The translations under genes and the position numbers were made by a program. The notes under the pieces were generated by a model. That model did no database searches and was not told where the DNA came from. It saw nothing but the letters and a program-made list of their open reading frames with translations. From positions 5,597 through 69,596 of the forward strand of contig JAYUGC010000066.1 in NCBI GenBank assembly GCA_043767805.1: a stretch of 64,000 nt of DNA. The letters are read 5' to 3'. The stretch's first letter is position 1; every line of letters starts with the position of its first letter. This document shows, one piece after another, positions 26,051 to 54,743 of the stretch. The DNA is from Pseudomonadota bacterium (GTDB taxonomy: Bacteria > Bdellovibrionota > FAC87 > UBA2466).

Positions 26051-26117
26051 GGCAAAGATTATACACGGACTTAAGTCAGAGACACGTCCGAGCGATCCAA
26101 GTGTTAACTTGGAAAGT

Positions 26118-29100: not shown

Positions 29101-29600
29101 CGCTCGTTGGCGGGCGGCGAAATCTGTTCTCGGTAGGTCACGAGAGCGAGCATTTCTTCGAATGGCACGACGCCCGCGGCGACCAGCATCGCGTACTCGC
29201 CGAAAGAATGGCTGGTCAGCACCTTCGGAAAGATCCCGCGGCACAAGAGCGAGTCGAAGAGCGCCACTTCGAGTACGAAGAGACTCAAATTCTGGATCGG
29301 TAAGAGGGAAGCCGGGTCCGCGCCTTCTTCGGCCAAAATATGAGAGGAGATCTTGGGAAGGCCGGCACTTACCACGAGCTTATCGGCCTTCTCGAAGACG
29401 CCGCGAATCTCGGGACGGTGGTACTGATCGCGGAGCATGCCCGGGTGCGCGGCGCCTTGGCCGGCAAAGAGAAATCCCCAGCTCGCCTGAGCCGTGGCGG
29501 GCTTCACTTGCAGCTGGTAGCCGCCGCCAAAGATAGACTCCGAGCGCACTTCGGCTTTCTGGTACCAGTTGAGGCCATGCAGGAAGGAAGTGCGGTTCAT
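26118..29600 (-). CDS. type I PKS / PfaA-like protein: acyltransferase - ACP - ketoreductase - PS-type dehydratase (no KS)
   Basis: True start is 'MNRTSF' at 29600, overlapping the KS gene stop (ATGA). AT domain: 'GQGAAHPGM', 'LTSHSFGEYAML' (GHSxG). ACP: 'LGIDSIKKTEIL'. KR: 'VVVAIGGAKGITQ' ... 'YAAANAVLD'. DH: 'HRIEGLAYLPAAAGVAM' (HxxxGxxxxP). The ORF-track N-terminal 28 aa are an extension. Confidence 0.85.
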   Translation of the reverse strand: MNRTSFLHGLNWYQKAEVRSESIFGGGYQLQVKPATAQASWGFLFAGQGAAHPGMLRDQYHRPEIRGVFEKADKLVVSAGLPKISSHILAEEGADPASLLPIQNLSLFVLEVALFDSLLCRGIFPKVLTSHSFGEYAMLVAAGVVPFEEMLALVTYREQISPPANERGYLVAVGADRERTAVLLRGRNVHLSNFNSPTQTVIAVAPGEVDEIERLIKDKGVKAKRLLTPQPYHSPFLLSLKPVMRKFLRSRSWNFSPPAIPFVSSVLHRQVDATNFKADDIFFILENQLVEPVDFIRQMGVMSEGGTTKFMEIGPTSLLSALARECGAKETLWVGDLLRKTPRKKAAAAKAKKPAGRVLSIVNDVIGKITGYQIEEISLEDRFQEDLGIDSIKKTEILFSVMDRLNFKPEGEVNYARFTKVEDLVGYMETEAPAAKGAEAMPEKVGHFERKRVAWFPQALDPIWEVSVEATPLMIPLTPADFLTDFDPKALAAEFRQQLASCRTRQVIFVATGFVSDLSLTADGSLNQWLETGLPRAAEAVQEVVRIEPKLAELTIGFVTMGQGSVITEAIAAFFKALRKESPEIRFKHIRLDDADPKIEALRWIREEMRDPLEWEVRYREGVRYVARLEAMPDPDALQSLPPNAVVVAIGGAKGITQSLLLGLDHVGHLHLCGRSSETEITPHLDTLRAKHPELSYETVDATRQEEVAPYLERILDKHGRIDLLIHASGVEVSRALGAKTAEEIRSELWAKALSAAHVVRAVAANPPKRILFFSSVVSWFGNPGQTIYAAANAVLDRFCRELNSAWGAGSAASLLWPPWDGVGMTANRAIRQGLVQKGLSLLTPEKAAELFRQDLFQSEGPVLYFDDTDWLAYGQSLATGFPELLGTSVAGRGVYRYVRRLDPAFDTMLSDHRIEGLAYLPAAAGVAMSLAGLYLHHKRWVGLADFVAQSPIVVGDKGADLSMEARAGQGVLEITISSDHGSFRACEAEGTAALPPLWREAANAQTVGERQIYAPQGLFHGPAFQTLSNVLIDGRGDAVARLNTFGLADLFPNDYSASFWGRLIQWIDTAFQMTAVIEIERNGNYCLPVRVAHVLTYFTHRPSEKVSLRLEQFESDGTSVKSEVALFDENGRCFLWLRGIEMKVARGAGARSGKLPSTG

Positions 29601-31648
29601 GGCTGAAAGTCGATTCCTTCCAGAGTGAACAGCGGTCCCTTGCCCACGTCCGGCACTTCTCCGGGCCGAGCGAGGAGCAGGCAATGGACTCCCGCCTTAC
29701 GAACGTCCGGCAAAGCTTCGTCGATGATGTCCTCGACTCCGATCGCCACTACGTAATCGCTCGTCTTCTGCCAGAGCTCGAGACGCGCGGCGCTCAGCGC
29801 GCAGGCAAACGAGTTCAAGTCGGCATCGACGTGGTAATTGGGGCCGTGAAAATCAAATTGATTGGCGACTCTACCGGCGATGACGTTGTCGAGCGTGCCC
29901 GGCCCGGCGTCCTCGCCGATTTTGGGATACCGTTCCCGGTGCGAGATGAGTCCTTTGAGGCCCGGCTCATCGCCTTTTCTGCCGCGCGCGAACTCCCAAT
30001 GACGAACCCGGCAATTGAGCCAGGCGTCCAGACCGAGCGAACAGGAGGAGATGACCGCCACGCGGTCGCGGGGAATCTGATCCCAATCGAGCCCCGAGCG
30101 ATCGAGCGCTTCGGACACCGCCATGAGGGTTAGTAGCTGGCTCACGTCGATCTGATTCAAGTTATTGGGCGGGATCTTAAAACCGTAGCTCGGAAAAAAA
30201 TCGAGGAAGTTCTCTCTCGGCACAAAGCTCTGCGCGAGCACCGAGACGGGCCCGACCTCGAGCTTCGGCCGCTCGGCAAGCGCGGTCGTCTGAGAAAACG
30301 TTTCCAAAAAGAGATGGTAGTTCGTCCCGCCAAAACCCGCGGAGCTTACGCCCGCTCTCAACGTACCTTCCTTCGCCATGAGAACCGGCTTCGGATTCAC
30401 GAAGACCGCGGTGGGGGCTCGTTCCTCGATGTAACTTTCGAAGTACGGGGATGGGGGTGCCGTGCGATGGGTAAGCGCAAGAATGCATTTGAGCATTCCC
30501 GCGGCGCCGGCCGCTCCCTTGGTGTGCCCGATTAAGGACTTCACGGAACCGATGGGAATCGGCGTGGGCGCGCCCTTGAAAAAAGCATCGAGGGTGTCGA
30601 TCTCGGTTGCGTCGCCGAGACGCGTGCCGGTCGCGTGGCATTCCAGAAAGTCGAGACGCGCGGGCTTGTTGTCGCCGTACGCTCGCTCCAAAGCGAGGCG
30701 CTGTCCATCGGAAGTTGGGGAAAAGAGACTGGCGCCGCGTCCATTCGAGGAACCGCCACAGCCCCGCAGGATCGCCTTTACCGGAAGCCCCGCCTTCATA
30801 GCGTCGTCTAAACGCACGAGAGCGAAGACCGCGGCGCCTTCTCCTTGATTCACGCCGTCCGTTTTATCGTCGAGCGGAAGGCAGCGGCCGTGGGACATGA
30901 GCCCCAGGCGGCTGAACAAAACGAAGTACTCGGGCGCAAGCTGTGTCTCGACACCGCCCGTGAGAGCGATGTCGCATTCCCGCGCGCGCAGTTTCTTCAT
31001 GGCGACGTCTGCCGCGGCAAGAGACGAGGCGCAAGCGGCCCCCACCAGACACCGTTCGCCGGGCATTTTGAAATGCCTTTGCAGGCGGTCGACCGCCGCC
31101 GTGTTGACGACGAGAGGAAGCGGCGTGGAGCGCTCCGCTTCTAGACGCCTAAGGGTGCTATCCAGGATGGCTCTCGCGGGAGCGCGCTCGGCGGCGGGTA
31201 ATGTCTCGATGTGCTCGAGAAGGCGCGGTCGTTCTAGGATGAGCTTGTGCTCGGAGACCTGATCGTCGGGGCCAAGGGCCCCTAGAAACCAGCCGGCTTT
31301 CCATCCCGCGCGCTTTGCCTCGGGGACCGTGGCTAGCGCCTGATGAGTCGCTTCGAGCAAAAAGACCTGAAAGCGATTCGTGTCTTTGAAATCCAGCCCA
31401 TGCGCTAAAGCGAGCCGCCGCACTTCGGTTTCGGCGACATAGGCGCCGAAAGTGGAATAAGTTTTGTCGGGATCTTCGCCGGTCTCGTCCAAATAAAGAT
31501 CTTCGGGCCAGCGATCGGCCGGAGCGCGGCGGATGGAGGGCTCGCCCGCGAGCACTCGCTTCCAAAAAGTGTCGGGGTTCGGTGAGTCCGGAAAGACGCA
31601 CCCAATTCCCACGACAGCAATATCGTCCTTATAAAGTGTATCGGGCAT
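29597..31648 (-). CDS. type I PKS ketosynthase (KS + KS-AT linker), stand-alone polypeptide
   Basis: 'DIAVVGIGCVFPDSPN', active-site Cys 'VGAACASSLAA', His motifs 'ECHATGTRLGD' and 'SLIGHTKGAAG'. About 250 aa of linker follow the KS. The gene is translationally coupled to the downstream AT-ACP-KR-DH gene. Confidence 0.85.
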   Translation of the reverse strand: MPDTLYKDDIAVVGIGCVFPDSPNPDTFWKRVLAGEPSIRRAPADRWPEDLYLDETGEDPDKTYSTFGAYVAETEVRRLALAHGLDFKDTNRFQVFLLEATHQALATVPEAKRAGWKAGWFLGALGPDDQVSEHKLILERPRLLEHIETLPAAERAPARAILDSTLRRLEAERSTPLPLVVNTAAVDRLQRHFKMPGERCLVGAACASSLAAADVAMKKLRARECDIALTGGVETQLAPEYFVLFSRLGLMSHGRCLPLDDKTDGVNQGEGAAVFALVRLDDAMKAGLPVKAILRGCGGSSNGRGASLFSPTSDGQRLALERAYGDNKPARLDFLECHATGTRLGDATEIDTLDAFFKGAPTPIPIGSVKSLIGHTKGAAGAAGMLKCILALTHRTAPPSPYFESYIEERAPTAVFVNPKPVLMAKEGTLRAGVSSAGFGGTNYHLFLETFSQTTALAERPKLEVGPVSVLAQSFVPRENFLDFFPSYGFKIPPNNLNQIDVSQLLTLMAVSEALDRSGLDWDQIPRDRVAVISSCSLGLDAWLNCRVRHWEFARGRKGDEPGLKGLISHRERYPKIGEDAGPGTLDNVIAGRVANQFDFHGPNYHVDADLNSFACALSAARLELWQKTSDYVVAIGVEDIIDEALPDVRKAGVHCLLLARPGEVPDVGKGPLFTLEGIDFQP

Positions 31649-31700
31649 TTACGAGCTGGGAGAGCGTAGAGGAAGGCTCTTAAAAGGTACGGCGTACCTA

Positions 31701-32522
31701 TTAAGATGATTTCTCTATTTTAACGCCTAGCCGCTCGAAGGCATAGCCCGGCGATCCCATGAAGTGATAGCCGCCATCGACGTGGAGCACTTCGCCTGTG
31801 GTAGACGCGGAAAGGTCGGAGAGGAGAAAACCCATGGCGCGCGCCACGTCATCGCCGGTGATATTACGGCCTTGCGGGGACATGGCCTTGAATTTCTCGA
31901 GCACGTCGCCGAAGACACCGAAGCTTTGGGTTTTAACCGGGCCCGCGCTCACCGCGTTGACCCGAATGCGCTTGGGCGCCAAATCGTAAGCGAGATAGCG
32001 GAGCGCCATGTCGAGAGCCGCCTTACACACCCCCATGAGGTTGTAGCCACTCACTACGCGCTCCCCGCCGAAGTAGGTGAGCGTGCCGATGGCGCCACCC
32101 GAGGGCATGAGAGCCGCCGCCTCCCGCGCACAGGCGATGAGGCTATAGCAGCTGACGTCCATGGCGACGCGAAAGCCTTCCCGGCTCGCCTCCAAAGTCG
32201 TGTGCTTCAAATCTTCGACGGGCGCGAAGGCGATGGAGTGCACCAGAAAATCGATGGCCCCCATTTCCCCGCCCGCCTCATTGAAGAAATGTTTGAGCGA
32301 TGCGTCGTCAGCGACGTCGCAAGGGAGAACGAACAGCGGACTCAAAGCGTCCGTCGCCGTTTTTACTTTCTGCAGGTTCCAATCGCGGCCGGGCTTATCC
32401 GTCTGGTACGAGAGCCCTATCTCCGCTCCTTCCTTTTTCAGGAAAGTTGCGATGGCCGTCGCAAGAGACGCCTCATTCGCAATGCCCATGACGATGCCGC
32501 GTTTACCGGTGAAAAGTCCCAT
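31701..32522 (-). CDS. fabI: enoyl-[ACP] reductase, FabI-like SDR
   Basis: Start 'MGLFTGKRGIVMGIANEASLATAIA' is a FabI-type NAD-binding N-terminus. 'Y..MGVCKAAL' is the Tyr/Lys catalytic pair. 273 aa. The ORF-track N-terminal extension (to 33044) is rejected. Confidence 0.75.
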   Translation of the reverse strand: MGLFTGKRGIVMGIANEASLATAIATFLKKEGAEIGLSYQTDKPGRDWNLQKVKTATDALSPLFVLPCDVADDASLKHFFNEAGGEMGAIDFLVHSIAFAPVEDLKHTTLEASREGFRVAMDVSCYSLIACAREAAALMPSGGAIGTLTYFGGERVVSGYNLMGVCKAALDMALRYLAYDLAPKRIRVNAVSAGPVKTQSFGVFGDVLEKFKAMSPQGRNITGDDVARAMGFLLSDLSASTTGEVLHVDGGYHFMGSPGYAFERLGVKIEKSS

Positions 32523-32675
32523 GGGGAAATTGTACCAGTCGGCCCCTTTTGGGGTGCAAAGTGCCCAAACGCGGCACCCCTCCGAGGGGAGAAGCACCTC
32601 CCCTCGAAGGAGGAAACCGGAACACCTCTTGCACAAGAGAACCTCAGGGCTGCATTGGCCCTGGAGGCGGTAGGC

Positions 32676-32978
32676 ATGGACCCACACTGGCTTAAATACA
32701 AGAACGACGACGAGATCGGACCCTTGCTCGCCAGCTACTCGCACACCGACGAGCAGCTCGACTTTCTCAAAAACGATCTCCGCGACAACGGCAATATCGA
32801 GGGCATCCTCGCCGTCTCTCGCCGCCAAGTGGCCATAAAGTACAAAATCTCGAAGCTGGTGGGGGCCGAGGAAGACCGCCACTTCCAAAGGCGCATGAGC
32901 CTTTTGTGGATGCTCGGGGTTTTCGCGCTCGTTCTGGTCGGCGCGGCGAATCTTGCGCTGCGTCTCGGAATCTTTTAA
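32676..32978 (+). CDS. small tail-anchored membrane protein (100 aa), not called separately in ORF track
   Basis: ATG at 32676 has GGAGG 8 nt upstream. Strong GC3 coding bias. C-terminal TM helix 'LLWMLGVFALVLVGAANLALRL'. The sequence is 'MDPHWLKYKNDDEIGPLLASYSHTDEQLDFLKNDL...'. It sits 57 nt upstream of the SPFH gene on the same strand. Confidence 0.45.
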   Translation: MDPHWLKYKNDDEIGPLLASYSHTDEQLDFLKNDLRDNGNIEGILAVSRRQVAIKYKISKLVGAEEDRHFQRRMSLLWMLGVFALVLVGAANLALRLGIF

Positions 32979-33034
32979 CCAGTTTTCCCTTAAACAATAG
33001 GCAGGTAGCGACCGATAGAGCATTCGGTAGCAAA

Positions 33035-34000
33035 ATGCCCGCACCCAAACAACAAAACGGACTTTTCCAAGGCATCTACGAGTTCCAAGATCCGTCGGGC
33101 ACTTTGCTCGCGGCTCGTATCCCGGCCTCCGGCTCCGTGGATCTCTACGACGGCACGACTCTCGTAGTGCGGCCCAATCAGTGCGCGATGTTCGTGCACA
33201 AAGGCCAAGTCGCCGACATTCTCACCCAAGGCACGCATACGCTTCGCACCGAGAACGTTCCGGTGCTCACCCGACTCGCGAACTGGCGCAAAGGGTTTCA
33301 GAGCCCGGTGCGCGCGGAAATCTGGTTCTTCTCTGGAATGGTTTTCACGGCTCGCCGCTGGGGAACCGCTCAACCGGTACTCACCAATCTCGACGCCGCC
33401 CCGATGCCTCTGCGCGGGTACGGCAACTACAATATTTTCATCCGCGATCCCCGCAAGCTTTTCAAAAAGCTCGTCGGCACGCGCAGCTTTCTGGACATCA
33501 CCGAGATCGAGGAGTTCGTCCAGAGCGAGATCCTCGCGGCTCTTCCCACTGCTCTCGAAGTCTTGAAATCGGTTTCCGATCTGGGCGCCTCGCACCGTCA
33601 GGTGGCAGCCAGGTTAGAAAACGATCTCGTGGCCCGGCTCGCCGAGTACGGCTTGTCGGTGACCAATCTCCAAGTGCTTGCTCTCATCCCGCCTCAGGAA
33701 GTGCTCGAGGCGCTGGACGCGAAGCTCGCCATGAAAGTGATCGGCAATCCGAAAGAGTACCTGCTTTACAAGGCGGCCAACTCCCTCGATGCCCTGCACG
33801 AGTCCGGCGGCAATGACTCGCTCCAGATGATGCTCGGGATGATGCTCGGCAAAGGACTCATCGGCGCCGATTATCACGAGAAAGAAAAATCTCTCGCGTC
33901 GGACAAGAGCGCGTCCCAGCAGCGCTGCGCTTCGTGCAACAACATCACCGATGCCGTGAACCGTTTTTGCCCTCATTGTGGCCGGGAGCTTGCTAAATGA
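33035..34000 (+). CDS. SPFH/band-7 domain protein with C-terminal zinc ribbon
   Basis: The SPFH-like core is followed by 'CASCNNITDAVNRFCPHCGREL' (CxxC...CxxC). Start is 'MPAPKQQNGLFQG'. Confidence 0.55.
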   Translation: MPAPKQQNGLFQGIYEFQDPSGTLLAARIPASGSVDLYDGTTLVVRPNQCAMFVHKGQVADILTQGTHTLRTENVPVLTRLANWRKGFQSPVRAEIWFFSGMVFTARRWGTAQPVLTNLDAAPMPLRGYGNYNIFIRDPRKLFKKLVGTRSFLDITEIEEFVQSEILAALPTALEVLKSVSDLGASHRQVAARLENDLVARLAEYGLSVTNLQVLALIPPQEVLEALDAKLAMKVIGNPKEYLLYKAANSLDALHESGGNDSLQMMLGMMLGKGLIGADYHEKEKSLASDKSASQQRCASCNNITDAVNRFCPHCGRELAK

Positions 34001-35883: not shown

Positions 35884-37941
35884 ATGCGCATAGCTTTCGT
35901 CTTTAACAAGCAAAGGACCAAGTCCGTCGCCGAAGCCGAGTTCGACACGGCGGAGACCATCGAGGCGATTCATAACGCCTTGGGCTCCACCGGGCACGAA
36001 GTGGTCGACGTGGAAATGACCACGGACGCCACCTGGGTGGAACGGCTGCTCCGAGTCAAACCGGATCTCATCTTCAATACCGCGGAAGGCTATCGCGGCG
36101 TCGGCCGAGAGAGTTTGGGGCCGGTCCTCTTCGAGCAATCCGGCCTGACGTACGTCGGATCGGGCCCCTACGCCTGTTTTCTGACCCTGGATAAATTTTT
36201 GACTAAGCAAATGGTCTCCCAGCGCGGGGTTCCCGTCTCCGAAGGCCACTTCGTCACGAGCGAGGACGAGCTCAAGACGGTAGCCATGGAAATGGTCTAT
36301 CCCGCGTTCGTTAAGCCCAACTACGAAGGTTCCTCGAAGGGCATCACCAAGCAGAGCATCTGCCGCACGCCCAAGGATCTTCTCGCCTACGGCAAGAAAT
36401 GCCTTTCCGAGTTCCCCGAAGGCCTCCTCATCGAGCGCTTCATTCCGGGTAAGGACGTCACCGTGTCCTATATCGCGGGCCTGGGCGATGAAGGCGTGCT
36501 GGAGCCCGTCGAGTACACCCAGATGGAAAAGCAGGACGGCGACTGGGTTTACGACTACGAGCTAAAAAACATCTCGGACGAGAAAGTCGGCATCCGCTGC
36601 CCGGCGCAGCTTCACCCCTTCACCCGCATTCAGATTATCGAAAAGATGAAACGTTGCGTTAGCGCGCTCGGCGTCGTCGACATGGGCCGCGCCGATTTCC
36701 GGGTCACGCCGGAAGGCGACGTCTACTTCATCGAGTTCAACGCCCTGCCCTCGCTCCAACCCGGCGCCGGAGTGTTCGAAGCGACGAAACTCTTGGGACT
36801 CAGCTACAACCAAACGTTATCGCGCATCCTGGAAACCTCTCTCTCCCGGCAAAAGTTGCAGGGCCCGGTGAACCGGCCTTCCCGCAAAATGACGGTGAAG
36901 TCGCCGCTGGTCGCGGTGGTCTACAACTTGCGCCGCAAGAACAAGGAAGAGGACGGCTACGAAGACGAGGCGGAGTTTGATTCCCAAACGACGGTGGACG
37001 CCATCTGCACGAGCATCCGCACGCTCAACTATAAAGCCATTCCCATCGAAGCGACACGCCAGCTCGCCGAACAGCTCAAAGAAGCCCACGTCGACATCGT
37101 TTTCAACATCGCGGAAGGCCGCGCGAAGAAAGCGCGCGAAGCGCAAGTACCAGCCATCTGCGATCTCTTGGGAATCGAGCACACCGGAAGCGACGTGCCT
37201 TGTCTCGCGCTGACTCTCGACAAAGCGATGACGAAAAAGATCGTCATGTCGGAAGGCATCCTCACCCCCCGGTACGCCATCTTGAACCGGCCTCCCAAAC
37301 GCATCGAGCTGGGTCTCAAATTTCCGATCATCGTGAAGCCGAACCAGGAAGGCACGTCGAAGGGCATTTACGAAAAGTCGGTCGTCTCCACCTCCGAAGA
37401 GCTCCTCGCTTCCATTCAGGCGCTCTGGACCAAGTTCCAAACACCGGTGCTCTGTGAGGAGTACATCGAAGGCCGCGAGTTCACCATCGGGGTTCTGGGG
37501 AGAAATGCGCTAAAGACCGTTGGCCCCATGGAAATCGCCTTCAAGCCCCGTCCGACGACCGCCTATCCGGTGTACTCCTTCGAAGCGAAGATGAGCGAGA
37601 ATCCCATCGACAATGAGTTCTGCCAGCTGATTTGCCCTCCGGAGCTCGATCCGACGCTCCTTCGCCGTATCAACGCCTTCGCGAGAAAGACGTTCAAGAT
37701 TCTCGGCTGCCGGGACATCGCACGCATCGATTTCCGCGTCGATAAAACGGGACAAATCTACTTCATCGAGGTCAACCCGCTACCGGGTCTTTCGCCCGGT
37801 TTCAGCGACCTGGTCATCATGGCTGACAAATCCGGATGGAAGTACGATGATCTCATCAAAGGAATTTTGAATCCGGCGGTACTCAGGTGGCGCAGCACCT
37901 ACACGCACAGGAATCCCGATAGGGAGAACACGGGTGGCTAG
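35884..37941 (+). CDS. fused tandem D-alanine--D-alanine ligase-like ATP-grasp protein (two Ddl-type modules, 685 aa)
   Basis: Two consecutive Ddl-like units share the same motif order. The first runs 'RIAFVFNKQ..' through 'YPAFVKPNYEGSSKGIT' to 'ADFRVTPEGDVYFIEFNALPSL'. The second runs 'VAVVYNLRRKN..' through 'FPIIVKPNQEGTSKGI' to 'ARIDFRVDKTGQIYFIEVNPLPGL'. Confidence 0.7.
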   Translation: MRIAFVFNKQRTKSVAEAEFDTAETIEAIHNALGSTGHEVVDVEMTTDATWVERLLRVKPDLIFNTAEGYRGVGRESLGPVLFEQSGLTYVGSGPYACFLTLDKFLTKQMVSQRGVPVSEGHFVTSEDELKTVAMEMVYPAFVKPNYEGSSKGITKQSICRTPKDLLAYGKKCLSEFPEGLLIERFIPGKDVTVSYIAGLGDEGVLEPVEYTQMEKQDGDWVYDYELKNISDEKVGIRCPAQLHPFTRIQIIEKMKRCVSALGVVDMGRADFRVTPEGDVYFIEFNALPSLQPGAGVFEATKLLGLSYNQTLSRILETSLSRQKLQGPVNRPSRKMTVKSPLVAVVYNLRRKNKEEDGYEDEAEFDSQTTVDAICTSIRTLNYKAIPIEATRQLAEQLKEAHVDIVFNIAEGRAKKAREAQVPAICDLLGIEHTGSDVPCLALTLDKAMTKKIVMSEGILTPRYAILNRPPKRIELGLKFPIIVKPNQEGTSKGIYEKSVVSTSEELLASIQALWTKFQTPVLCEEYIEGREFTIGVLGRNALKTVGPMEIAFKPRPTTAYPVYSFEAKMSENPIDNEFCQLICPPELDPTLLRRINAFARKTFKILGCRDIARIDFRVDKTGQIYFIEVNPLPGLSPGFSDLVIMADKSGWKYDDLIKGILNPAVLRWRSTYTHRNPDRENTGG

Positions 37942-39148
37942 TCTTTTCCAAAAATACTCGGAAGCCGCTCAGCAGAGAAAGCGACTGAGACAGCTGGGCA
38001 TTACGCTCGGCCACTACGAGACCGGGCCGTTCAACGCCATCACGGACGTCGCCGGAGTCAAAGTGGGCCACGCCACCCTCATCGAAGGATCCGGCCGCCG
38101 CAAGCCCGGCAAAGGCCCCATCCGCACCGGCGTCACCATGATCATGCCGAGCGACGATATTTTTGAAAGAAAGCTCGTGGCGAGCGGTTTCATTTTAAAT
38201 GGCGCGGGAGAAGTCGCTGGCCTCACCCAGCTGATGGAATGGGGGCTCATCGAAACCCCCATCGCGCTCACCAACACGCTTTCGGTCGGCCGTGTCGGCG
38301 ACAGCATCGTAAAATGGATGGCCCAGCGCTACGGCCAGAGCCGCATTCAGGCGGAAGTGGTTATCCCCGTGGTCGGCGAGTGCGACGATAGTTTCTTGAA
38401 CGATGCCGTCGGACTCCACATCCGTCCGCAGGACGTGTTCGCGGCCATCGAGAGCGCGACGAGCGGTCCGGTGAGCGAGGGCTGCGTCGGTGCGGGCACC
38501 GGCATGATTTGCTGCGATTTCAAAGGGGGGATCGGAACCGCGAGCCGGGTCATCCCCATGGGGCTTCAGAAAGAGAAGCACACCATCGGCGTGCTGGTCC
38601 TCTCCAACTTCGGTCGCATGGAAGATTTGCGAGTGGACGGCTATCCGGTGGGCCGCGTGCTCTCTCGCGTGCAAGGCGAATACTCCCGCCGGCGGTTCAA
38701 TTACGGGTCCATCATCGTGGTCATCGCGACTGACCTGCCCGTAACGCCGCTGCAACTGGGACGTATTTGCAAGCGCTCGGCCTTAGGGATCGGCCGCGTG
38801 GGAACCTATGCCGCTCACGGGAGCGGAGAGATCATTCTGGGCTTCTCGACGGCGAACACCATTCCGAGCATTTCGACGCCGAAATTCTCCATGACGGTCA
38901 TCAACGATCCGTTTCTCGATCCCGCGTACGAGGCGGTCATCGAAGCGACGGAAGAAGCGATTCTCAATTCGCTTTGCGCCGCGGTCGATACCGACGGCGT
39001 CGGTGGCCACCGTGTGCCGGCCATCGACATCGAGATGCTGAAAAATCTTTTCTCCCATTACAACGCGACGAACGATTACTCGACGCTTCCCGGTAACTTC
39101 GCGCCTCGCTCGCCCGCGCCTCCCGAGCCCGATCCCATCGACAACTAA
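37934..39148 (+). CDS. P1/S58 family peptidase (DmpA-like L-aminopeptidase/D-Ala-esterase-amidase)
   Basis: GTG start with GGGAG RBS, overlapping the Ddl-like stop. 'ITDVAGVKVGHAT', 'GTGMICCDFKGGIGTASR' and 'GVLVLSNFG' fit the DmpA/S58 Ntn-hydrolase family. Confidence 0.65.
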   Translation: MASLFQKYSEAAQQRKRLRQLGITLGHYETGPFNAITDVAGVKVGHATLIEGSGRRKPGKGPIRTGVTMIMPSDDIFERKLVASGFILNGAGEVAGLTQLMEWGLIETPIALTNTLSVGRVGDSIVKWMAQRYGQSRIQAEVVIPVVGECDDSFLNDAVGLHIRPQDVFAAIESATSGPVSEGCVGAGTGMICCDFKGGIGTASRVIPMGLQKEKHTIGVLVLSNFGRMEDLRVDGYPVGRVLSRVQGEYSRRRFNYGSIIVVIATDLPVTPLQLGRICKRSALGIGRVGTYAAHGSGEIILGFSTANTIPSISTPKFSMTVINDPFLDPAYEAVIEATEEAILNSLCAAVDTDGVGGHRVPAIDIEMLKNLFSHYNATNDYSTLPGNFAPRSPAPPEPDPIDN

Positions 39149-39262: not shown

Positions 39263-39559
39263 ATGAAATTCTGGATGCTCATGCTCTGTGCGATCACCCT
39301 CTTCACGGCGAGCCTCGCGAAAGCGGAAGACGAAGCCGCGGGAACCGACACGGTCACTACGACCGATACGACGACGACCGATTCCTCCACGACGGAATCG
39401 AAGGGCGGCCACAAGAAGCACGCTCGTAAGCACAAGTCCAAGATGACGAAGAAATCCAAGAAGGCGAAGAGAGCCCACAAAGCGGCGGAGCCCGTTGCGG
39501 CCCCCGAAGCGGCGACTCCCCCGGCTGAAGGCGAAATGCCGGCCGAAGGCGCGAACTAA
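39263..39559 (+). CDS. small secreted Thr-rich / Lys-His-rich basic protein (98 aa)
   Basis: Signal peptide 'MKFWMLMLCAITLFTASLAKA'. Mature part is 'TDTVTTTDTTTTDSSTTE' followed by 'GGHKKHARKHKSKMTKKSKKAKRAHKAA' and a Pro/Ala/Glu tail. Its own -10 box lies upstream and a strong terminator downstream. Confidence 0.5.
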   Translation: MKFWMLMLCAITLFTASLAKAEDEAAGTDTVTTTDTTTTDSSTTESKGGHKKHARKHKSKMTKKSKKAKRAHKAAEPVAAPEAATPPAEGEMPAEGAN

Positions 39560-40634: not shown

Positions 40635-41279
40635 GTGCCGCTACTTAGCTGCCTCGCTTTGCTTTTTATTTCCACGCTGGCTTTTGCCGAAGCGCCCCAA
40701 CGCCTCGCGAAAATCCGTCCACCGCTCTGGGACGTGTCGCCCCGTTTGATGCTCGGCTTCAATTTTTCCTACGGCGCCGCCGATCCCGGCTCTCCGGGCT
40801 CGACTCGCAATGCGCCGTCGTTTCTGGCGTCGGTCGATCTTCCACTCGGAAACGGCTGGTACTTTTCTCCGGGCATGGGCCTACTCGCTCGCGGGGTGCA
40901 GACCACGGTGTACACCTTGGGCACCTTGGATTTAAAGGGTAGCGTGCAGCTCGATTACGTCGAGCTTCCGCTTCTGCTGAAAAAATCCTTCGCAAGTCAC
41001 GTGCGCGGCATGCGCTATACGTTTTTCGGCGGCCCCGCCATGGCGCTCGCCATCCAGCGTGAGGTCGAGCTGCTAGGCGCCGTGAACCTCGACATCTCCG
41101 ATCGCTTTTTCGCGAGCGATACGCTTTTCTACATGGGCGCGGGGATTGAGTATAAAGGACCGAAGGGACCTGGGATCGTGGCGGAGCTCAGGTACGCGCT
41201 GGGGCTCGGCGACATCGATCGGACGGCGAATCAGTACCGCACGCGCGGGATTTTGTTTTTGCTGGGACTCAGCTTTTAG
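40635..41279 (+). CDS. outer-membrane beta-barrel protein (OmpA-N/porin-like small barrel)
   Basis: GTG start with GGAGGGG RBS. Signal peptide 'PLLSCLALLFISTLAFA'. Alternating hydrophobic beta-strand pattern. C-terminal 'GILFLLGLSF' ends in Phe, as in barrel-assembly signals. Confidence 0.6.
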   Translation: MPLLSCLALLFISTLAFAEAPQRLAKIRPPLWDVSPRLMLGFNFSYGAADPGSPGSTRNAPSFLASVDLPLGNGWYFSPGMGLLARGVQTTVYTLGTLDLKGSVQLDYVELPLLLKKSFASHVRGMRYTFFGGPAMALAIQREVELLGAVNLDISDRFFASDTLFYMGAGIEYKGPKGPGIVAELRYALGLGDIDRTANQYRTRGILFLLGLSF

Positions 41280-42094
41280 TCAGCGAGGGAGAGATCGCAA
41301 AAGAGACCTTCGGCAACCCAAGCCTGAAACCAAAGGCTTAGTTTCCCGGGATCGTCCACGAGTCCTTCAATGGCAGCGCAAGCCGACCCGAGAGTCTCGC
41401 CGCGGGAAAGATTTTCCAAGAGACGGAACGCGCCGAGCTCCAGACTCTCGACTCGCATGCCGCCGGAGAGCAGCCGGCGAGCGCAAAGCCACTGCTTGCG
41501 CGGCTTTTTCGGAAACGTAAGGCGTTGCGATCCTAAACGATGGCGCCACAGCCCCAAGATGGGCCAGGCCGATTCCACGAGCCGCACTGAAGGCGCGAGC
41601 TCCAAGCGAACTTGAGTGCCCTCTTCTCCCGCGAGTAACTGCAACCGCTCCGGCGCGAGAGCGCGGGACTGCCCCGCGAAAAAAGCCTCGAGATACCAGC
41701 GCTCGAAACGGGCGAGCTCTCCGAGCCAAGGGTTATCCCGGCAAAGCTCCAGGGATTGCACGAACTCGGGGAACGCCCTACCCGCGACCATAATGTCGGG
41801 AGACTGCGAAGGATGCCTTTCGAAATACAGGCGCACTAGATCGGAAAACGTCTCGTAGTCCTCAAGCCAAGTGACGGACTTCCCCGTGGCCTCATAGTCA
41901 TCGGAGACGCTTTCCAAAAGACGCCAGAAGTAGCCGTTCGCGTAGATCGCCACTCGATCCGCGCGCGCGATGGGCGGCTGATCCACGATGTGCGGATGCG
42001 CGGCCCAAACCGCCGGATCCGTACCGGTGAAAGCTTCACGGAGCGATTGCTGAAGCTCGGCTAGACTGGGCACCCGCCCTCGGGTCGCATCCAA
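41276..42094 (-). CDS. DUF2063-family protein (MbnC/BufC-like partner of MNIO enzymes)
   Basis: 272 aa. It lies immediately downstream of, and overlaps, the DUF692 gene, which is the canonical DUF692-DUF2063 pairing. The start is uncertain (59-nt overlap if taken at 42094). Confidence 0.6.
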   Translation of the reverse strand: MDATRGRVPSLAELQQSLREAFTGTDPAVWAAHPHIVDQPPIARADRVAIYANGYFWRLLESVSDDYEATGKSVTWLEDYETFSDLVRLYFERHPSQSPDIMVAGRAFPEFVQSLELCRDNPWLGELARFERWYLEAFFAGQSRALAPERLQLLAGEEGTQVRLELAPSVRLVESAWPILGLWRHRLGSQRLTFPKKPRKQWLCARRLLSGGMRVESLELGAFRLLENLSRGETLGSACAAIEGLVDDPGKLSLWFQAWVAEGLFCDLSLAD

Positions 42095-42947
42095 GAAATT
42101 CCTCCCGGAAAAACTCTGCCCGGGCCGCCTCTTCGGCTAGCCGGGGAAATTCAGGTAACTGATCGTCCCACTCGATCAGGGTCGGCACGTCCCCAAAAAG
42201 CCTGAGCGCCTGGCGGTACAGCTCCCAAACGGGATCCGATACCGGATGGTCGTGGGTATCAATGAGATGGGTACCCTTGTCCGAGTACCCCGCCAGATGA
42301 AACTGCCCCACGCGATCGGCCGGCACCGCGTTCAAGTAGGTCATCGGATCGAAACCATGGTTGCGGCTACTGACGTAAATATTATTCACGTCGAGCAGCA
42401 ACCCGCAATCGGCCTCCTCGGCGACACGAGAGAGGAACTCCCACTCCTCCATTTCGGAATGAGTGAAGGTGAGATAGCTCGAGACATTTTCAACCAGGAT
42501 GCGGCGGCCGAGAAAATCCTGGACCTGGCCGATGCGGCTCACCACGTGCTTAAGCGCTTCTTCCGTATAAGGAAGCGGAAGTAAATCGTGCAGGTTCTGC
42601 CCTCCGACCCCCGTCCAGCAAAGGTGATCGGAAACCCACGCCGGCTCTACGCGGGCGATGAGCTCTTTCCAGCGCTTTAGATAATCGTCTCGAAACGGAT
42701 CGACCGATCCCAAGGAAAGCGAAACGCCATGAAGAACGATGGGGTAATGCTCGCGCACGGACTCCAGAATTTCGACGGGTCTTCCGAACTCCCGCGCGCC
42801 CAGCCCTAGAAAATTTTCGGTGATGACTTCGAACCAGCCCAGGTTGGGCCGGTTCTCGAGGACGAAGGGATAGTGAGGCGGACGGAGCCCCACGCCCACT
42901 CCGAAGGAGCGTGCCTGGTACCCGTCCGCCTCACCAAATCGATACAT
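42036..42947 (-). CDS. DUF692 / MNIO (multinuclear non-heme iron oxidative enzyme; MbnB/BufB-like)
   Basis: N-terminal 'SFGVGVGLRPPHYPFV' matches the DUF692 'GIGLR..H' hallmark. Later 'HGVSLSLGS', 'ENVSSYL' and 'LLLDVNNIYVSS' are TIM-barrel (xylose-isomerase-like) iron-ligand regions. Confidence 0.8.
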   Translation of the reverse strand: MYRFGEADGYQARSFGVGVGLRPPHYPFVLENRPNLGWFEVITENFLGLGAREFGRPVEILESVREHYPIVLHGVSLSLGSVDPFRDDYLKRWKELIARVEPAWVSDHLCWTGVGGQNLHDLLPLPYTEEALKHVVSRIGQVQDFLGRRILVENVSSYLTFTHSEMEEWEFLSRVAEEADCGLLLDVNNIYVSSRNHGFDPMTYLNAVPADRVGQFHLAGYSDKGTHLIDTHDHPVSDPVWELYRQALRLFGDVPTLIEWDDQLPEFPRLAEEAARAEFFREEFLGCDPRAGAQSSRASAIAP

Positions 42948-42968
42948 CAGAATCCTAGGGAGCGAGGC

Positions 42969-43256
42969 TTAGGCCTTTTCCCACTGGATCTTCACATTTT
43001 TGTCCTTGTTGTCGGCTTTGGCCTTCGTGCACTCGGCTTCCGTCATCTTCTTCCAGCCTTTGCCCTTGCAGCCGTTCTTGCCCGCGCAGTCGTGCGACTT
43101 GTCTTTCGCGCCACAGTCGCCCGTGGTTTTGCAGGAGTTCGCGCCCAAGCATTTGCCCTTGGCCGCGTCGTCCGCTTTCGCCGTGGAGGGGACGAGGATC
43201 GCCGCTCCGAGAATGCCCGTCATTGCTGCCGCCACGATGAGATTATTTTTCTTCAT
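42969..43256 (-). CDS. DUF2282-like Cys-rich secreted precursor peptide (bufferin/BufA-like RiPP precursor), 95 aa
   Basis: Start 'MKKNNLIVAAAMTGILGAAILVPSTAKA' (signal peptide, GGAGA RBS). Core is 'GKCLGANSCKTTGDCGAKDKSHDCAGKNGCKGKGWKKMTEAEC'. It has six Cys and fits the DUF2282 pattern GKCxG...GxDC...HxC.G......W......C. It lies 21 nt upstream of the MNIO gene on the same strand. Confidence 0.7.
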   Translation of the reverse strand: MKKNNLIVAAAMTGILGAAILVPSTAKADDAAKGKCLGANSCKTTGDCGAKDKSHDCAGKNGCKGKGWKKMTEAECTKAKADNKDKNVKIQWEKA

Positions 43257-43473
43257 TTGATTGCTGTCTCCGTTGGTTAAGGGTTCGAAAGAACCCAAAG
43301 ATACTAACAAACCGGATCCCGTTCGTAACGAAGCATTCGACGACGCATCGCTCCCGCGATCACCGCAACACCGATACAAATTGCCACACCGGATCGGCCC
43401 GCTTCCTCACGCCCGAGATTGGTATCGCCATTGCATTGAGATCTCCCCAAGCACCCCAAAAGGAGACTTCCCC

Positions 43474-44190
43474 ATGCAACGCTTGATGGCATTAGCTCTT
43501 TCGTTTTTGACGACGGCTGCCGTCGCCTCCTCTACCGCGGCGGTCCAAGTCCGCTTCGAGAAAGCTTTCATACCTCTGACTTTCGACACCAACGACCGCA
43601 GCCAAGTGGTACTCACAGGGGTTTATCCCGATACCTGCTACCAAGGTGGTGGTGTGCAGTACCAAGTCGACAAAGCCGCCCGTGTCATTCGCGCGACTCA
43701 GTGGGCGTTCTATCAACCCGGAAACTGCCTGCCGGCCACCGTGCCTTTTTCCTCGGTGCTCACTTTCGATCGCTTGGAGGCCGGGATTTACGAAATCGAA
43801 GATGCGGCTAGCGGAACAAAGCTCGGCGAGCTCGCCATCACTTTAGCCAAGGGTCCTCTCGTTCCGGGCGCGAGCTACGCCAACTTCGCTCCGGTCTCCG
43901 ACGCCTACATCGAGCAGAACGCGACTACCCGGCAAACGGAGCTCGTCCTGACCGGTACCTGGACCGATCGCTGCACGCACTTCAAAGAAGTGAAGCTGTT
44001 CTATCAAAGCGACGTGCTCGTGGTTCAGCCGATCGTAGAGCCCTTGAACGAAGAGGACAGCCGCGACTGCGCCTTGCAGATCGATCGCTTCCAAAAACGC
44101 GTCCCCATTCAAACCATGGGGGAGAGAACTTTCTTGTTGCACGTCCAAACCCCTGGCGGCTTTGCTATCAACAAGATCTACAACGACTAA
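43474..44190 (+). CDS. secreted hypothetical protein with internal duplication (238 aa)
   Basis: AAAGGAGA RBS. Signal peptide 'MQRLMALALSFLTTAAVASSTAA'. Two related halves ('VVLTGVYPDTCYQGG..' and 'LVLTGTWTDRCTHFK..'). It is divergent from the RiPP precursor gene. Confidence 0.5.
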   Translation: MQRLMALALSFLTTAAVASSTAAVQVRFEKAFIPLTFDTNDRSQVVLTGVYPDTCYQGGGVQYQVDKAARVIRATQWAFYQPGNCLPATVPFSSVLTFDRLEAGIYEIEDAASGTKLGELAITLAKGPLVPGASYANFAPVSDAYIEQNATTRQTELVLTGTWTDRCTHFKEVKLFYQSDVLVVQPIVEPLNEEDSRDCALQIDRFQKRVPIQTMGERTFLLHVQTPGGFAINKIYND

Positions 44191-44197
44191 CCTTCAA

Positions 44198-44229
44198 GGG
44201 GGGCGGGAGACGACTCCCGCCCCTTTCTC
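44198..44229. terminator. rho-independent terminator (10-bp GC stem + T tract)
   Basis: 'ggggcgggag-acga-ctcccgcccc' then 'tttctc'. It lies between the + gene ending at 44190 and the - gene ending at 44228. Confidence 0.7.
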
Positions 44230-44875
44230 ACCTCTCCCACAGCGCCCACACCTGGGCGGCGAGCTCCGCGTAACACCTCACTCTCTCATTTTCCGGAGCC
44301 ACCCCCGCGGCATGGCTCCAATAGCCAAGATCCCAATCGCGATCGCCCATACCCGCGAACTCCCAATCGATCAAATAGAGCCCATCTGGACTCATCAGAA
44401 AATTTTCGGGATGAGGATCGCCGTGCATCGGAGATAACGGCGTCCCCTTCGCGAGAGCTCGGGCCAAATCGATCCACCGATCCAGATCGGCGGGAATGAC
44501 TTCCTGACGAGCGGCCGAGATCCGCAAGGCGTTTTCCGCCCCGCAAGTTTCCGGAAACACCACACCACTCGCGTGCACGCGATCCAGTAGCGAGCGCGCG
44601 GCACTTTTTTCTTTCGCGGCGAGAGGTGCCCGGGCTTGCGAAATCCACCCCACCACATAACCTTCCTCGTTTCCGGTTATGAAAGGAGGCGCCCAACCCG
44701 CGGCGGAGGCAAGTCGCGCGTTTTTTGGGGCGGCGGAACCTTTGTCGCAAAGCCGGAGGAAGTAATCGCTCCCCTCCGAGTGAAAACGAAGGCCGTTGCC
44801 GTGACGCGCGATCGTGGAAATCGTTTTTCCCTCGGGGAACTCGGGGGTCGCTCGCAACCAGCGCATGGCGTCCAT
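44228..44875 (-). CDS. aminoglycoside/choline-kinase-type phosphotransferase (APH family) protein
   Basis: Brenner motif 'MHGDPHPENFLM' and 'LIDWEFAGMGDRDWDLGY'. 215 aa. The start is uncertain. Confidence 0.6.
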   Translation of the reverse strand: MDAMRWLRATPEFPEGKTISTIARHGNGLRFHSEGSDYFLRLCDKGSAAPKNARLASAAGWAPPFITGNEEGYVVGWISQARAPLAAKEKSAARSLLDRVHASGVVFPETCGAENALRISAARQEVIPADLDRWIDLARALAKGTPLSPMHGDPHPENFLMSPDGLYLIDWEFAGMGDRDWDLGYWSHAAGVAPENERVRCYAELAAQVWALWER

Positions 44876-54187: not shown

Positions 54188-54739
54188 TTACATCAACCCG
54201 AGCTGAAGCTTCGCCGCTTCCGACATCATCTCGCGGTCCCAGGCCGGATCGAAGACCACTTCGACGTTGGCTTTGTTCACGCCGGGAAGACTCTTCACCT
54301 TCGTCTCGACATCATTTTGCAAGACGGGACCCATGCCGCAGCCGGGAGCGGTGAGCGTCATGGTGATCTGAATGTCGTTCACGCCTTCGCTGACCGAAGT
54401 GACCTGGCACTTATAGACGAGCCCGAGCTCCACGATATTGATCGGAATCTCGGGATCGTAACAGGTCTTCAAAACTTCCCAGATGGCCTTCTCCAAAGAC
54501 TCCGGATCGGTACCCTTATTCTCCAGAACGAGGGTCTGCACTTCCTTGCCGAGCGCATCGGCGTCGCTCCCTGAAATACGGACGAGATAACCAAGCTCGG
54601 TGCCGACCGTATAAGAGCCGCCCAGTTCTTGATGCAAGGTCACGGGCGTGCCTTCGGGCAAATTCACTTTGTTGCCGTCCGGGATTTGCACTCCCACTAC
54701 GTCCCGGGAGAGCTTCACGAGGGAATTATCGAACTTCAT
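54188..54739 (-). CDS. sufT: SUF-system Fe-S assembly protein, DUF59/MIP18 (SufT-like) with N-terminal extension
   Basis: C-terminal 'AIWEVLKTCYDPEIPINIVELGLVY' is the DUF59/MIP18 signature. It is the last gene of the suf operon. GGAG RBS. Confidence 0.6.
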   Translation of the reverse strand: MKFDNSLVKLSRDVVGVQIPDGNKVNLPEGTPVTLHQELGGSYTVGTELGYLVRISGSDADALGKEVQTLVLENKGTDPESLEKAIWEVLKTCYDPEIPINIVELGLVYKCQVTSVSEGVNDIQITMTLTAPGCGMGPVLQNDVETKVKSLPGVNKANVEVVFDPAWDREMMSEAAKLQLGLM

Positions 54740-54743
54740 CGCA

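Follow-up and report, generated by a model that had tools for sequence, protein, structure and literature searches.

A probable Buf2-family bufABC operon with a predicted copper-buffering peptide product

The three-gene locus described here is very probably a bufABC operon of the Buf2 family (also BufA2, 'BUF_6/12Cys' or 'Cys-Lys captophorin'), a periplasmic copper-buffer pathway. It lies in a stretch of 64,000 nucleotides, which was analysed whole and is called the window. The gene structure, the family membership of the three proteins, the intact iron ligands and the catalytic Asp were computed here, as were the Cys pattern typical of the family and the conservation of the three-gene architecture. 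An ORF check of the window placed bufA, bufB and bufC on the minus strand, with the coordinates first given for them in an earlier note on this DNA, which had described three co-directional genes. The features of the locus are as follows.

40635-41279, plus strand, convergent: OMP beta-barrel gene (PF13568 at 4e-11)
41276-42094, minus strand: bufC, 272 aa, TTG start, predicted DUF2063-type partner protein (PME1)
42036-42947, minus strand: bufB, 303 aa, predicted MNIO (DUF692) bufferin maturase
42969-43256, minus strand: bufA2, 95 aa from ATG, predicted bufferin-2 precursor, stop codon at 42969-42971
42972-43172, minus strand: BufA core, 67 aa including 16 Lys
43173-43256, minus strand: BufA predicted signal peptide, residues 1-28, cleavage predicted between AKA and DD as judged by inspection
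43266-43271, minus strand: Shine-Dalgarno GGAGAC of bufA, with GGAGACA invariant in five related upstream regions
43281-43311, minus strand: conserved upstream elements, with columns invariant across five loci

The genes are closely packed. The gap between bufA and bufB is 21 nt, bufB and bufC overlap by 59 nt and bufC overlaps the convergent OMP gene by 4 nt. The TTG start of bufC has GGGAGGAA 5' of it, and an overlap of bufC with the MNIO gene (59 or 47 nt) is retained in the related loci L083 and L085. bufA is kept in relatives, with substitutions mostly at codon position 3 (16/13/41 for the three positions, window against L086). A long antisense ORF at 43000-43260 was taken to be a shadow ORF because stop codons interrupt the copies in relatives. 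Rfam and tRNA scans of the entire window returned no match and therefore no RNA element is annotated in it. Upstream of bufA, TTTGTTAGTAT (43301-43311) resembles an extended -10 element (TGnTAnnnT), and the palindrome GGGTTC-TTTC-GAACCC follows downstream of it at 43281-43296. The TTTG..A, GTT.TT and AACC columns are invariant in five loci, and the window contains each element only once. These elements may represent a putative promoter plus an operator or 5'-UTR hairpin. A generic scan for sigma-70 promoters and terminators around the operon was uninformative, since its counts were not above those expected from shuffled sequence.

The precursor BufA includes the core quoted in the earlier note, GKCLGANSCKTTGDCGAKDKSHDCAGKNGCKGKGWKKMTEAEC, letter for letter, and has Cys at residues 36, 42, 48, 57, 63 and 76. 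Its N-terminus reads MKKNN, LIVAAAMTGILGAAILV and PSTAKA, followed by DD. By inspection this resembles a Sec signal of the kind proposed previously, with a KK n-region, a hydrophobic h-region and an AxA site, and the putative signal region is conserved in the alignment of relatives. BufA scored 60.4 bits against NF050166 (Cu_RiPP_BufA2) and thus passes its cutoff of 60 only marginally; the match has E = 1.5e-16 and spans model positions 4-76 of 79. The 11 close relatives of the precursor all match this model too, with a best E of 3e-19. The description of the peptide as DUF2282-like did not hold. PF10048 (DUF2282) gave no match at E <= 10 to BufA or its 10 closest relatives, and all 11 match the sister family NF050166 instead; in precomputed annotation PF10048 matches were graded only 'weak' or 'faint'. 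With PF10048 silent for the peptide and its relatives and six Cys present, a Buf1/DUF2282 identity was rejected.

The six Cys are invariant across 11 relatives (alignment A1). Their spacing in BufA is 5-5-8-5-12, compared with a family mode of 5-5-6-5-12, so that the third loop has 8 residues rather than 6; 13 of 133 family members share the spacing of BufA. Lys makes up a fraction of 0.239 of the core; in the family the median is 0.186 and the highest value 0.286. An 'extremely Lys-rich' core was therefore dropped as an anomaly. Cys-Lys dyads are found at C42-K43 and C63-K64, whereas the other two central Cys lack a Lys directly after them. The marginal BufA2 score, the longer third loop and the low number of dyads count against the Buf2 assignment. 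The EGKCG motif is absent from the core. An AF2 model of the precursor was of low confidence (pLDDT 59.8) and was used qualitatively. In this model C36 fell within the first strand and C76 within the helix, an arrangement of CysI and CysVI known from bufferins.

BufB contains GVGLRPPH and matched PF05114 at E = 3e-110, bearing out its identification as a DUF692 protein. It scored 386.5 bits against NF050167 (MNIO_BufB), where the cutoff is 310. Seven residues (H108, E153, D186, N189, H217, D230 and H232) align with the MbnB ligands H90, E133, D163, N166, H192, D208 and H210 and are conserved, so the iron-ligand residues expected of a DUF692 enzyme are in place. PDB 3BWW was the top sequence match to BufB among solved structures, and H73 and E259 were assigned as iron ligands by motif against it. 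The BufB motif E259-W-D261-D262 corresponds to E-R-D-F in 3BWW, which is of the Lys-Cys type. In MNIOs of the Cys-Lys type the residue that follows the catalytic Asp is an Asp (BufB2-Asp251) and not a Phe (PMC13097082), and an Asp is found at the D262 position in 62 of 77 homologs. By its E-W-D-D motif BufB thus bears the predicted catalytic Asp plus the Cys-Lys-type Asp.

BufC matched PF09836 (DUF2063) at 49.5 bits (cutoff 27.2), as had been suggested for the third gene, while the HvfC model NF050145 gave 41 against a cutoff of 142. A sequence search of the PDB with BufC found no match at E <= 1, and a fold comparison was therefore needed. The AF2 model (pLDDT 82.7, pTM 0.74) was matched by Foldseek to TglI (8hi7_A, E = 1.3e-6) and to NgoC/3DEE (E = 4.7e-6). 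For the C-terminal RRE-like domain there was a weak match only, to the TbiB1 RRE (E = 2.9). With both Pfam domains and the BufB model positive, the proposal of an MNIO plus DUF2063 RiPP cluster of the bufferin type was well founded.

The same note had also labelled the cluster methanobactin-type. MNIOs are known to catalyse varied reactions and BufB is weakly similar to MbnB and TglH. A secreted copper-scavenging chalkophore made by methanobactin-like or other MNIO chemistry (oxazolone-thioamide formation or beta-carbon excision) is nevertheless extremely unlikely. The other MNIO equivalog models scored BufB far below their cutoffs (MbnB TIGR04159, 72.3 against 325; ApyH, 94 against 400; ChrH, 49 against 600; HvfB NF003818, 253.7 against 360). 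The partner is a DUF2063/PME1 protein rather than MbnC, an MbnT-type or other transporter gene is absent, and the 95-aa precursor is a predicted Sec substrate with a folded 67-aa core. MNIO-PME1 clusters examined to date install 5-thiooxazoles, which are regarded as their general product (PMC13097082). MbnABC and TglHI do share with the window locus a TIM-barrel MNIO with His/Asp/Glu/Asn iron ligands that acts with a partner on Cys of a ribosomal peptide, and the BufC model resembles TglI. They differ in their chemistry, which is oxazolone-thioamide formation or beta-carbon excision where a 5-thiooxazole is expected here, in leader-peptide precursors that lack a Sec signal, and in their partners and transporters.

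The Buf2 assignment extends to the relatives of the locus. The best MNIO identity in a scan of genome contigs was 64%, and homologs were spread over many phyla. Among 80 loci carrying the closest MNIO homologs, 61 have a C-x5-C-x5-C-x6-8-C-x5-C-x12-13-C unit upstream of the MNIO gene and 61 have a DUF2063-like ORF downstream of it. A phmmer search started from the BufC sequence alone failed to find BufC in about one quarter of loci, even when one profile round was added, owing to fast divergence or contig ends. When the neighbour ORFs of 81 loci were clustered all against all, only the MNIO, the DUF2063 protein and their antisense shadow ORFs were shared. The conserved DoxX or transporter gene for which a search of homologous neighbourhoods had been advised was not among them, and no fourth gene of any kind was conserved. 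A profile search with the peptide returned 1,863 representative clusters with E <= 1e-3, and 463 remained at the stricter limit of E <= 1e-10.

The closest characterised system, and the prototype of the family, is Buf2 of Caulobacter vibrioides (buf2ABC, CCNA_03001-02999; Leprevost et al. 2024, PMC11626156). It has a six-Cys core and no bufD/DoxX (PMC11626156). The window locus shares its gene order of precursor, MNIO and DUF2063 protein, the lack of DoxX, a Sec signal peptide (predicted for the window peptide) and a core of about 60-67 aa with six conserved Cys. The window precursor passes the BufA2 HMM of that family and the MNIO passes the BufB HMM. Unlike C. vibrioides Buf2, the window peptide has a third inter-Cys loop of 8 residues (mode 6) and a core somewhat richer in Lys (24%), and SigF-type regulation is not evident. 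Six conserved Cys are found in 90% of Buf2 precursors (PMC12452194), and the group corresponds to the 'Cys-Lys' precursor class (PMC13097082). Six Cys, Lys-richness, the bufABC order and the missing DoxX are thus published hallmarks of Buf2. The earlier note was correct in listing six Cys, a Lys-rich core and no DoxX, but not in calling them unusual. As the supposedly unusual features are the published defining features of Buf2, there is no evidence for the undescribed modification pattern that it proposed; the expected chemistry is 5-thiooxazole formation and not the oxazolone-thioamide of methanobactins.

The Buf1/DUF2282 (PF10048) bufABCD systems are similar in the sequence cluster of the MNIO, the DUF2063 partner and the small folded peptide, for which Sec export is predicted here. 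Their 5-thiooxazole chemistry and copper-buffering role would also be shared. The four conserved Cys, the PF10048 match, the usual DoxX and the frequent sigma/NrsF genes of Buf1 are missing at the window locus. The Lys-Cys captophorins fontiphorin, oxazolin (HvfABC) and gonophorin (PMC13097082) likewise combine an MNIO-PME1 pair with a precursor bearing a signal peptide, which for BufA is predicted. These pairs install 5-thiooxazoles on precursor Cys and the same would be expected here. EGKCG repeats are a feature of the Lys-Cys captophorin precursors, and the MNIOs of this group show Asp-Phe at the position where BufB has Asp-Asp.

From the characterised homologues we infer the thiooxazole chemistry, the choice of modified Cys and the disulfide, and likewise the location in the periplasm and the role in copper buffering. 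In the cytoplasm, BufB and its DUF2063/RRE-type partner BufC would jointly carry out four-electron oxidations of cysteines in the BufA2 core, drawing on O2 and the multinuclear non-heme iron centre of BufB, and would thereby form 5-thiooxazole heterocycles (-4 Da each). In Caulobacter Buf2 the central four Cys lose 4 Da each, CysI and CysVI are unmodified and the product absorbs at 305 nm (PMC11626156), although the structure of the Buf2 modifications is not fully solved even in Caulobacter (PMC12452194). By analogy C42, C48, C57 and C63 would be modified here, and C36 and C76 would remain thiols and form a disulfide after export, as in the expected product of Caulobacter type with four modified central Cys and a CysI-CysVI disulfide. 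Export of the modified precursor to the periplasm would be directed by the Sec signal peptide (residues 1-28), and cleavage there by signal peptidase I would free the Lys-rich small protein of 67 aa (Asp29-Ala95). The average mass of this core before modification is 7106.0 Da, which four 5-thiooxazoles would lower by 16 Da, or by 18 Da together with the disulfide. With N/S donors from its thiooxazoles, the mature protein could chelate Cu(I)/Cu(II) and in this way buffer copper stress. The most likely product is therefore predicted to be a periplasmic 67-aa copper buffer with four central 5-thiooxazoles and one CysI-CysVI disulfide.

A Pfam scan of 48 window ORFs found no copper-related gene, ECF sigma/NrsF pair, Sigma70 or DoxX, and because of this the copper link is drawn entirely from homology. 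A thiooxazole Buf2 peptide aimed at a target other than copper (Hg, Au, Ag, Zn, or redox or sulfur stress) would fit the lack of a copper-homeostasis gene, SigF/NrsF pair or metal-sensing regulator in those 48 ORFs. MerC-Buf2 fusions are known and roles with other metals have been proposed (PMC12452194), and gig-like operons were originally observed as gold-induced. Such a target is unlikely, however, given that the sole experimentally studied Buf2, the Caulobacter buf2 operon, is copper-induced and copper-protective (PMC11626156) and that the characterised 5-thiooxazole peptides (fontiphorin, oxazolin, gonophorin and Buf1) are all tied to copper. Regulators may also be non-adjacent, and Buf2 clusters mostly occur without sigma/anti-sigma genes (PMC12452194). 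Copper buffering is thus the preferred role.

The neighbours of the operon were considered as possible parts of an extended system. The beta-barrel OMP gene, which had been noted downstream on the opposite strand, was confirmed there and abuts bufC; the others are a divergent gene for a secreted ORF11_beta-like protein and an upstream APH-like kinase gene (44228-44875). In a lineage-specific system these could act with the bufferin to give a variant product or localisation, possibly by extra phosphorylation or outer-membrane handling. The OMP gene adjoins bufC in all lineage relatives with sequence (L083, L084 and L085, at 74%, 76% and 60% identity). The gene tables of two JGI contigs carrying P0005 list an APH-family gene that ends 40 bp before bufA and has the same orientation. 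L085 has an APH C-terminal remnant upstream of bufA, and the ORF11_beta-like gene is kept in L083 and L087. Against this, all three genes are absent from 80 Buf2-type loci of other lineages, and close relatives also retain the surrounding gene order (pyrophosphatase, S58 peptidase, ATP-grasp, MS channel), so that relatedness alone may explain why these genes lie together. Being encoded on the strand opposite to bufABC, the OMP and ORF11_beta-like genes are not co-transcribed with it, and BufB and BufC suffice for maturation in the model system. An extended system of this kind is very improbable. Scarcely more probable is a new bufferin subtype, in which the Buf2 operon gained accessory genes of its own that change the peptide or its destination. 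Three neighbours are candidates for this role: the small APH-family kinase, encoded upstream in the direction of bufABC and immediately next to bufA in some relatives; the secreted ORF11_beta-like protein, whose gene is divergent; and the outer-membrane beta-barrel protein, whose convergent gene invariably abuts bufC. If this were so, phosphorylation of core Ser/Thr and outer-membrane association or release would be possible.

As a Buf2 operon, the locus adds one uncharacterised member to a described and widespread family with thousands of members, which current NCBIfam models already recognise. Labelling the genes BufA2, BufB and BufC instead of DUF2282-like or methanobactin-type avoids a false claim of novelty. 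The lineage-specific neighbours (OMP, APH-like kinase and secreted protein) are the sole part that could repay further work. The BufA2/BufB/BufC labelling also predicts a testable product, a periplasmic peptide of 67 aa that would carry four thiooxazoles and one disulfide.

Three minus-strand genes were found at the positions reported in the earlier note, and both the core sequence and the GVGLRPPH motif quoted there were present. They encode a Cys-rich precursor (bufA), an MNIO (DUF692; bufB) and a DUF2063 (PME1) partner (bufC). An antisense ORF lies over bufA.

43256 down to 42969, minus strand: bufA, 95 aa, ATG start preceded by GGAGAC
42947 down to 42036, minus strand: bufB, 303 aa, starting 21 nt past the bufA stop
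42094 down to 41276, minus strand: bufC, 272 aa, TTG start preceded by GGGAGGAA, 59-nt overlap with bufB
43000-43260, plus strand: antisense shadow ORF over bufA, 86 aa, wobble positions common with bufA, GC3 0.81

bufA is a genuine gene and not an ORF artefact, because it is kept in four related contigs, its substitutions are biased to the wobble position (16, 13 and 41 differences at codon positions 1, 2 and 3 between the window and the homologous locus L086) and the antisense ORF contains stop codons in L086 and a second relative, L085. A naive GC3-based gene picker took the antisense ORF in place of bufA.

The precursor had been described as DUF2282-like. PF10048 gave no match to the bufA product or its ten closest relatives even at E <= 10, which does not bear this out. 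The bufA product matched NF050166, "BufA2 family periplasmic bufferin-type metallophore" (60.4 bits, cutoff 60, E = 1.5e-16), as did 11 of 11 members of its close family. It has a predicted Sec signal of classic form (MKKNN / LIVAAAMTGILGAAILV / PSTAKA, with DD after the cut). The 67-aa core contains 16 Lys and has Cys at positions 8, 14, 20, 29, 35 and 48 (core numbering), with a net charge of +6 and a pI of 9.1. The six Cys, a G-K-N-x-C-K-G-x-G block and an N-x-C-K block are invariant among relatives. The family is large, since a precursor profile run on 1.84 billion proteins matched 1,863 representative clusters (at the level of 50% identity) with E <= 1e-3; at the stricter E <= 1e-10, 463 were matched.

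The six Cys and the Lys-richness had been read as anomalies. Both fell within the range of the 133 family members in hand. The Cys spacing was 5-5-8-5-12, found in 13 members, with a family mode of 5-5-6-5-12 (88 members). The Lys fraction was 0.239 (family median 0.186, maximum 0.286; 12 of 133 at or above the query) and the net charge of +6 compared with a median of +5. An independent sample was drawn from the MNIO side. A same-strand upstream six-Cys unit was present in 61 of 80 species-level loci of the closest MNIO homologs, in some as a tandem 12-13-Cys version. Within this unit the Lys fraction was 0.195 for the query, with a median of 0.154 and a maximum of 0.205 across the 61 loci. 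From these comparisons, six Cys and Lys-richness are family traits.

On its sequence the bufB product is unambiguously an MNIO. The HMM checks proposed for the enzyme and its partner were both positive, with PF05114 at 3e-110 for BufB and PF09836 at 49.5 bits (vs 27.2) for the DUF2063 domain of BufC. BufB also scored 386.5 bits against the equivalog NF050167, "MNIO family bufferin maturase" (cutoff 310). Identities as HvfB, ApyH, MbnB and ChrH were rejected, each model being far under its cutoff. Iron ligands were mapped by alignment to MbnB of Methylosinus trichosporium (PDB 7TCR) and the ligand list of PMC9060507. BufB H108, E153, D186, N189, H217, D230 and H232 were identical to MbnB H90, E133, D163, N166, H192, D208 and H210. 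MbnB H54 and E239 lay outside the local alignment and corresponded by motif to BufB H73 (VLHGVS) and E259 (LIEWDD), both kept relative to 3BWW. In MNIOs the catalytic Asp is reported to lie directly past the Glu-x position, with the residue after it being Phe for Lys-Cys (EGKCG) substrates and Asp for "Cys-Lys" substrates such as BufA2 (Gadgil et al., PMC13097082). The motif is E259-W-D261-D262 in BufB and E-R-D-F in 3BWW, and Asp follows the catalytic Asp in 62 of 77 close homologs. With D262 after D261, BufB thus carries the signature fitting its substrate class. Some close homologs lie behind Cys-rich precursors that do not have the six-Cys Buf2 pattern (L076:495-761, L042:5516-5791, L035:1279-1617). 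In a Bdellovibrionales MAG the precursor has KCKG/DGKDGC repeats, and another example is a 16-Cys CxxC-rich lipoprotein-like peptide; such precursors may be other substrate classes of this MNIO clade.

BufC is, by sequence comparison, fast-evolving. A word-indexed search found only six homologs, and PDB chains gave no match by sequence. The AF2 model built on the six-sequence alignment was confident (pLDDT 82.7, pTM 0.74), its N-terminal half being helical and its C-terminal half made of strands and helices. The top Foldseek matches were TglI, partner of the MNIO TglH (8hi7_A, E = 1.3e-6), and NGO1945/NgoC (3DEE, E = 4.7e-6), the PME1 partner from the gonophorin cluster, known as a crystal structure (PMC13097082). 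For the C-terminal domain of BufC, the similarity to the RRE protein TbiB1 did not reach significance (E = 2.9), so the proposal that this domain may be RRE-like comes from published work.

In 81 loci, every ORF of 90 aa or more from 4 kb upstream to 5 kb downstream of the MNIO match was clustered. Apart from the MNIO and DUF2063 genes, together with the shadow ORFs antisense to them, nothing was widely common; the next-largest group occurred in 16 of 81 loci. A Pfam scan of 48 window ORFs gave no match to DoxX, Sigma70_r2/r4, NrsF or any copper-handling family. The missing DoxX, previously counted as a departure, agrees with the published Buf2 picture. Buf1 maturation and function do not need DoxX (PMC11626156), and Sigma/NrsF genes occur in Buf1 clusters and not in Buf2 clusters (PMC12452194). 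A single metal-efflux gene was seen in the window, for a cation diffusion facilitator (10179-11087, plus strand; PF01545 and ZT_dimer) with a His-rich N-terminus (MRHGHDHHHHD), approximately 31 kb from the buf operon.

The nearest relatives, L083 (MAG GCA_964653655.1; BufC 55% identical) and several Logan, ENA and JGI contigs, had flanking genes in common with the window.

40635-41279, plus strand: outer-membrane beta-barrel (OMP) gene, PF13568, convergent to bufC with a 4-nt overlap of its stop
43474-44190, plus strand: secreted 238-aa ORF11_beta-like protein, divergent from bufA, weak precomputed PF27154 (ORF11_beta) match only
44228-44875, minus strand: APH-family phosphotransferase, 215 aa, upstream of bufA on the same strand

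In all relatives of the lineage for which sequence is available, the OMP gene adjoins bufC (identity 74% in L083, 76% in L084, 60% in L085). The ORF11_beta-like gene was present in L083 (47%) and L087 (85%). Two JGI contigs with precursor P0005 have an APH-family gene 40 bp upstream of their bufA, and an uncalled APH C-terminal remnant lies just upstream of bufA at L085:675-851. The window APH-family protein weakly matched the class V lanthipeptide kinase LxmK model (E = 1.4e-4). None of the three genes was found alongside Buf2 loci of other lineages, the OMP gene being absent from 80 such loci. Shared ancestry is the simplest reading of the flanking-gene conservation, since wider synteny is likewise kept among close relatives. 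A secreted 98-aa protein with a Thr/Asp-rich and then a Lys-rich stretch (39263-39559, plus strand) had no family match; it is conserved in L081 and L083, where the corresponding gene calls are also 98 aa long and lie at the same position.

The divergent intergenic region between bufA and the ORF11_beta-like gene is 217 bp and contains three elements conserved across five loci, the third being the Shine-Dalgarno sequence.

Within 43281-43311, minus strand: extended -10-like element TTTGTTAGTAT, TTTGyTA (TGnTAnnnT-like)
Within 43281-43311, minus strand: perfect palindrome GGGTTC-TTTC-GAACCC with 6-bp arms

Invariant columns across the five related loci were TTTG..A, GTT.TT and AACC. These elements may plausibly be a promoter and an operator or 5'-UTR hairpin.

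A maturation pathway can be proposed from characterised homologs. BufB and BufC would act on the cytoplasmic precursor, recognised through its core and not its signal peptide, and turn Cys into 5-thiooxazole by four-electron oxidations of -4 Da each. The modified precursor would leave by Sec and be cut by signal peptidase, and a CysI-CysVI disulfide would be made in the periplasm. The product would be a small folded protein holding copper by thiooxazole N/S donors. In Caulobacter Buf2 each of the four central Cys loses 4 Da, with CysI and CysVI left unmodified (PMC11626156). On this pattern C42, C48, C57 and C63 of BufA would be modified, C36 and C76 would form the disulfide and the 7106.0-Da core would become 18 Da lighter. 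A low-confidence AF2 model of the precursor has C36 on its first strand and C76 on its sole long helix, which fits the published bufferin topology. Nothing in the window links the locus specifically to copper, and a copper role would follow from its homologs.

Elsewhere, the window contains a polyketide or fatty-acid-type gene set (24764-33044, minus strand), adjoined by an Old Yellow Enzyme-type oxidoreductase (23669-24745).

24764-26050, minus strand: AMP-binding enzyme
26118-29684, minus strand: 1188-aa AT-KR-DH protein
29597-31648, minus strand: 683-aa ketosynthase
31701-33044, minus strand: enoyl-ACP reductase-like protein

At 35884-39148 (plus strand) a 685-aa double ATP-grasp/D-Ala-D-Ala-ligase-like protein is followed by an overlapping Peptidase_S58 (DmpA-type) protein. 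The pair, also conserved in L083, resembles a peptide-ligase/aminopeptidase module. At 54188-60426 (minus strand), a complete suf operon for Fe-S assembly encodes an Rrf2 regulator, SufB, a SufC-like ATPase, SufD, SufS and an FeS_assembly_P protein, and the window is therefore a chromosomal housekeeping context. No rRNA or tRNA was found in the window.

The reading of the locus as an MNIO/DUF2063 bufferin-type RiPP cluster stands. The DUF2282-like precursor does not, nor do six Cys, Lys-richness and the lack of DoxX as departures; these traits define the already described Buf2 (BufA2, "BUF_6/12Cys") or Cys-Lys captophorin family. To that known family the locus adds one more, so far uncharacterised, Buf2 member.
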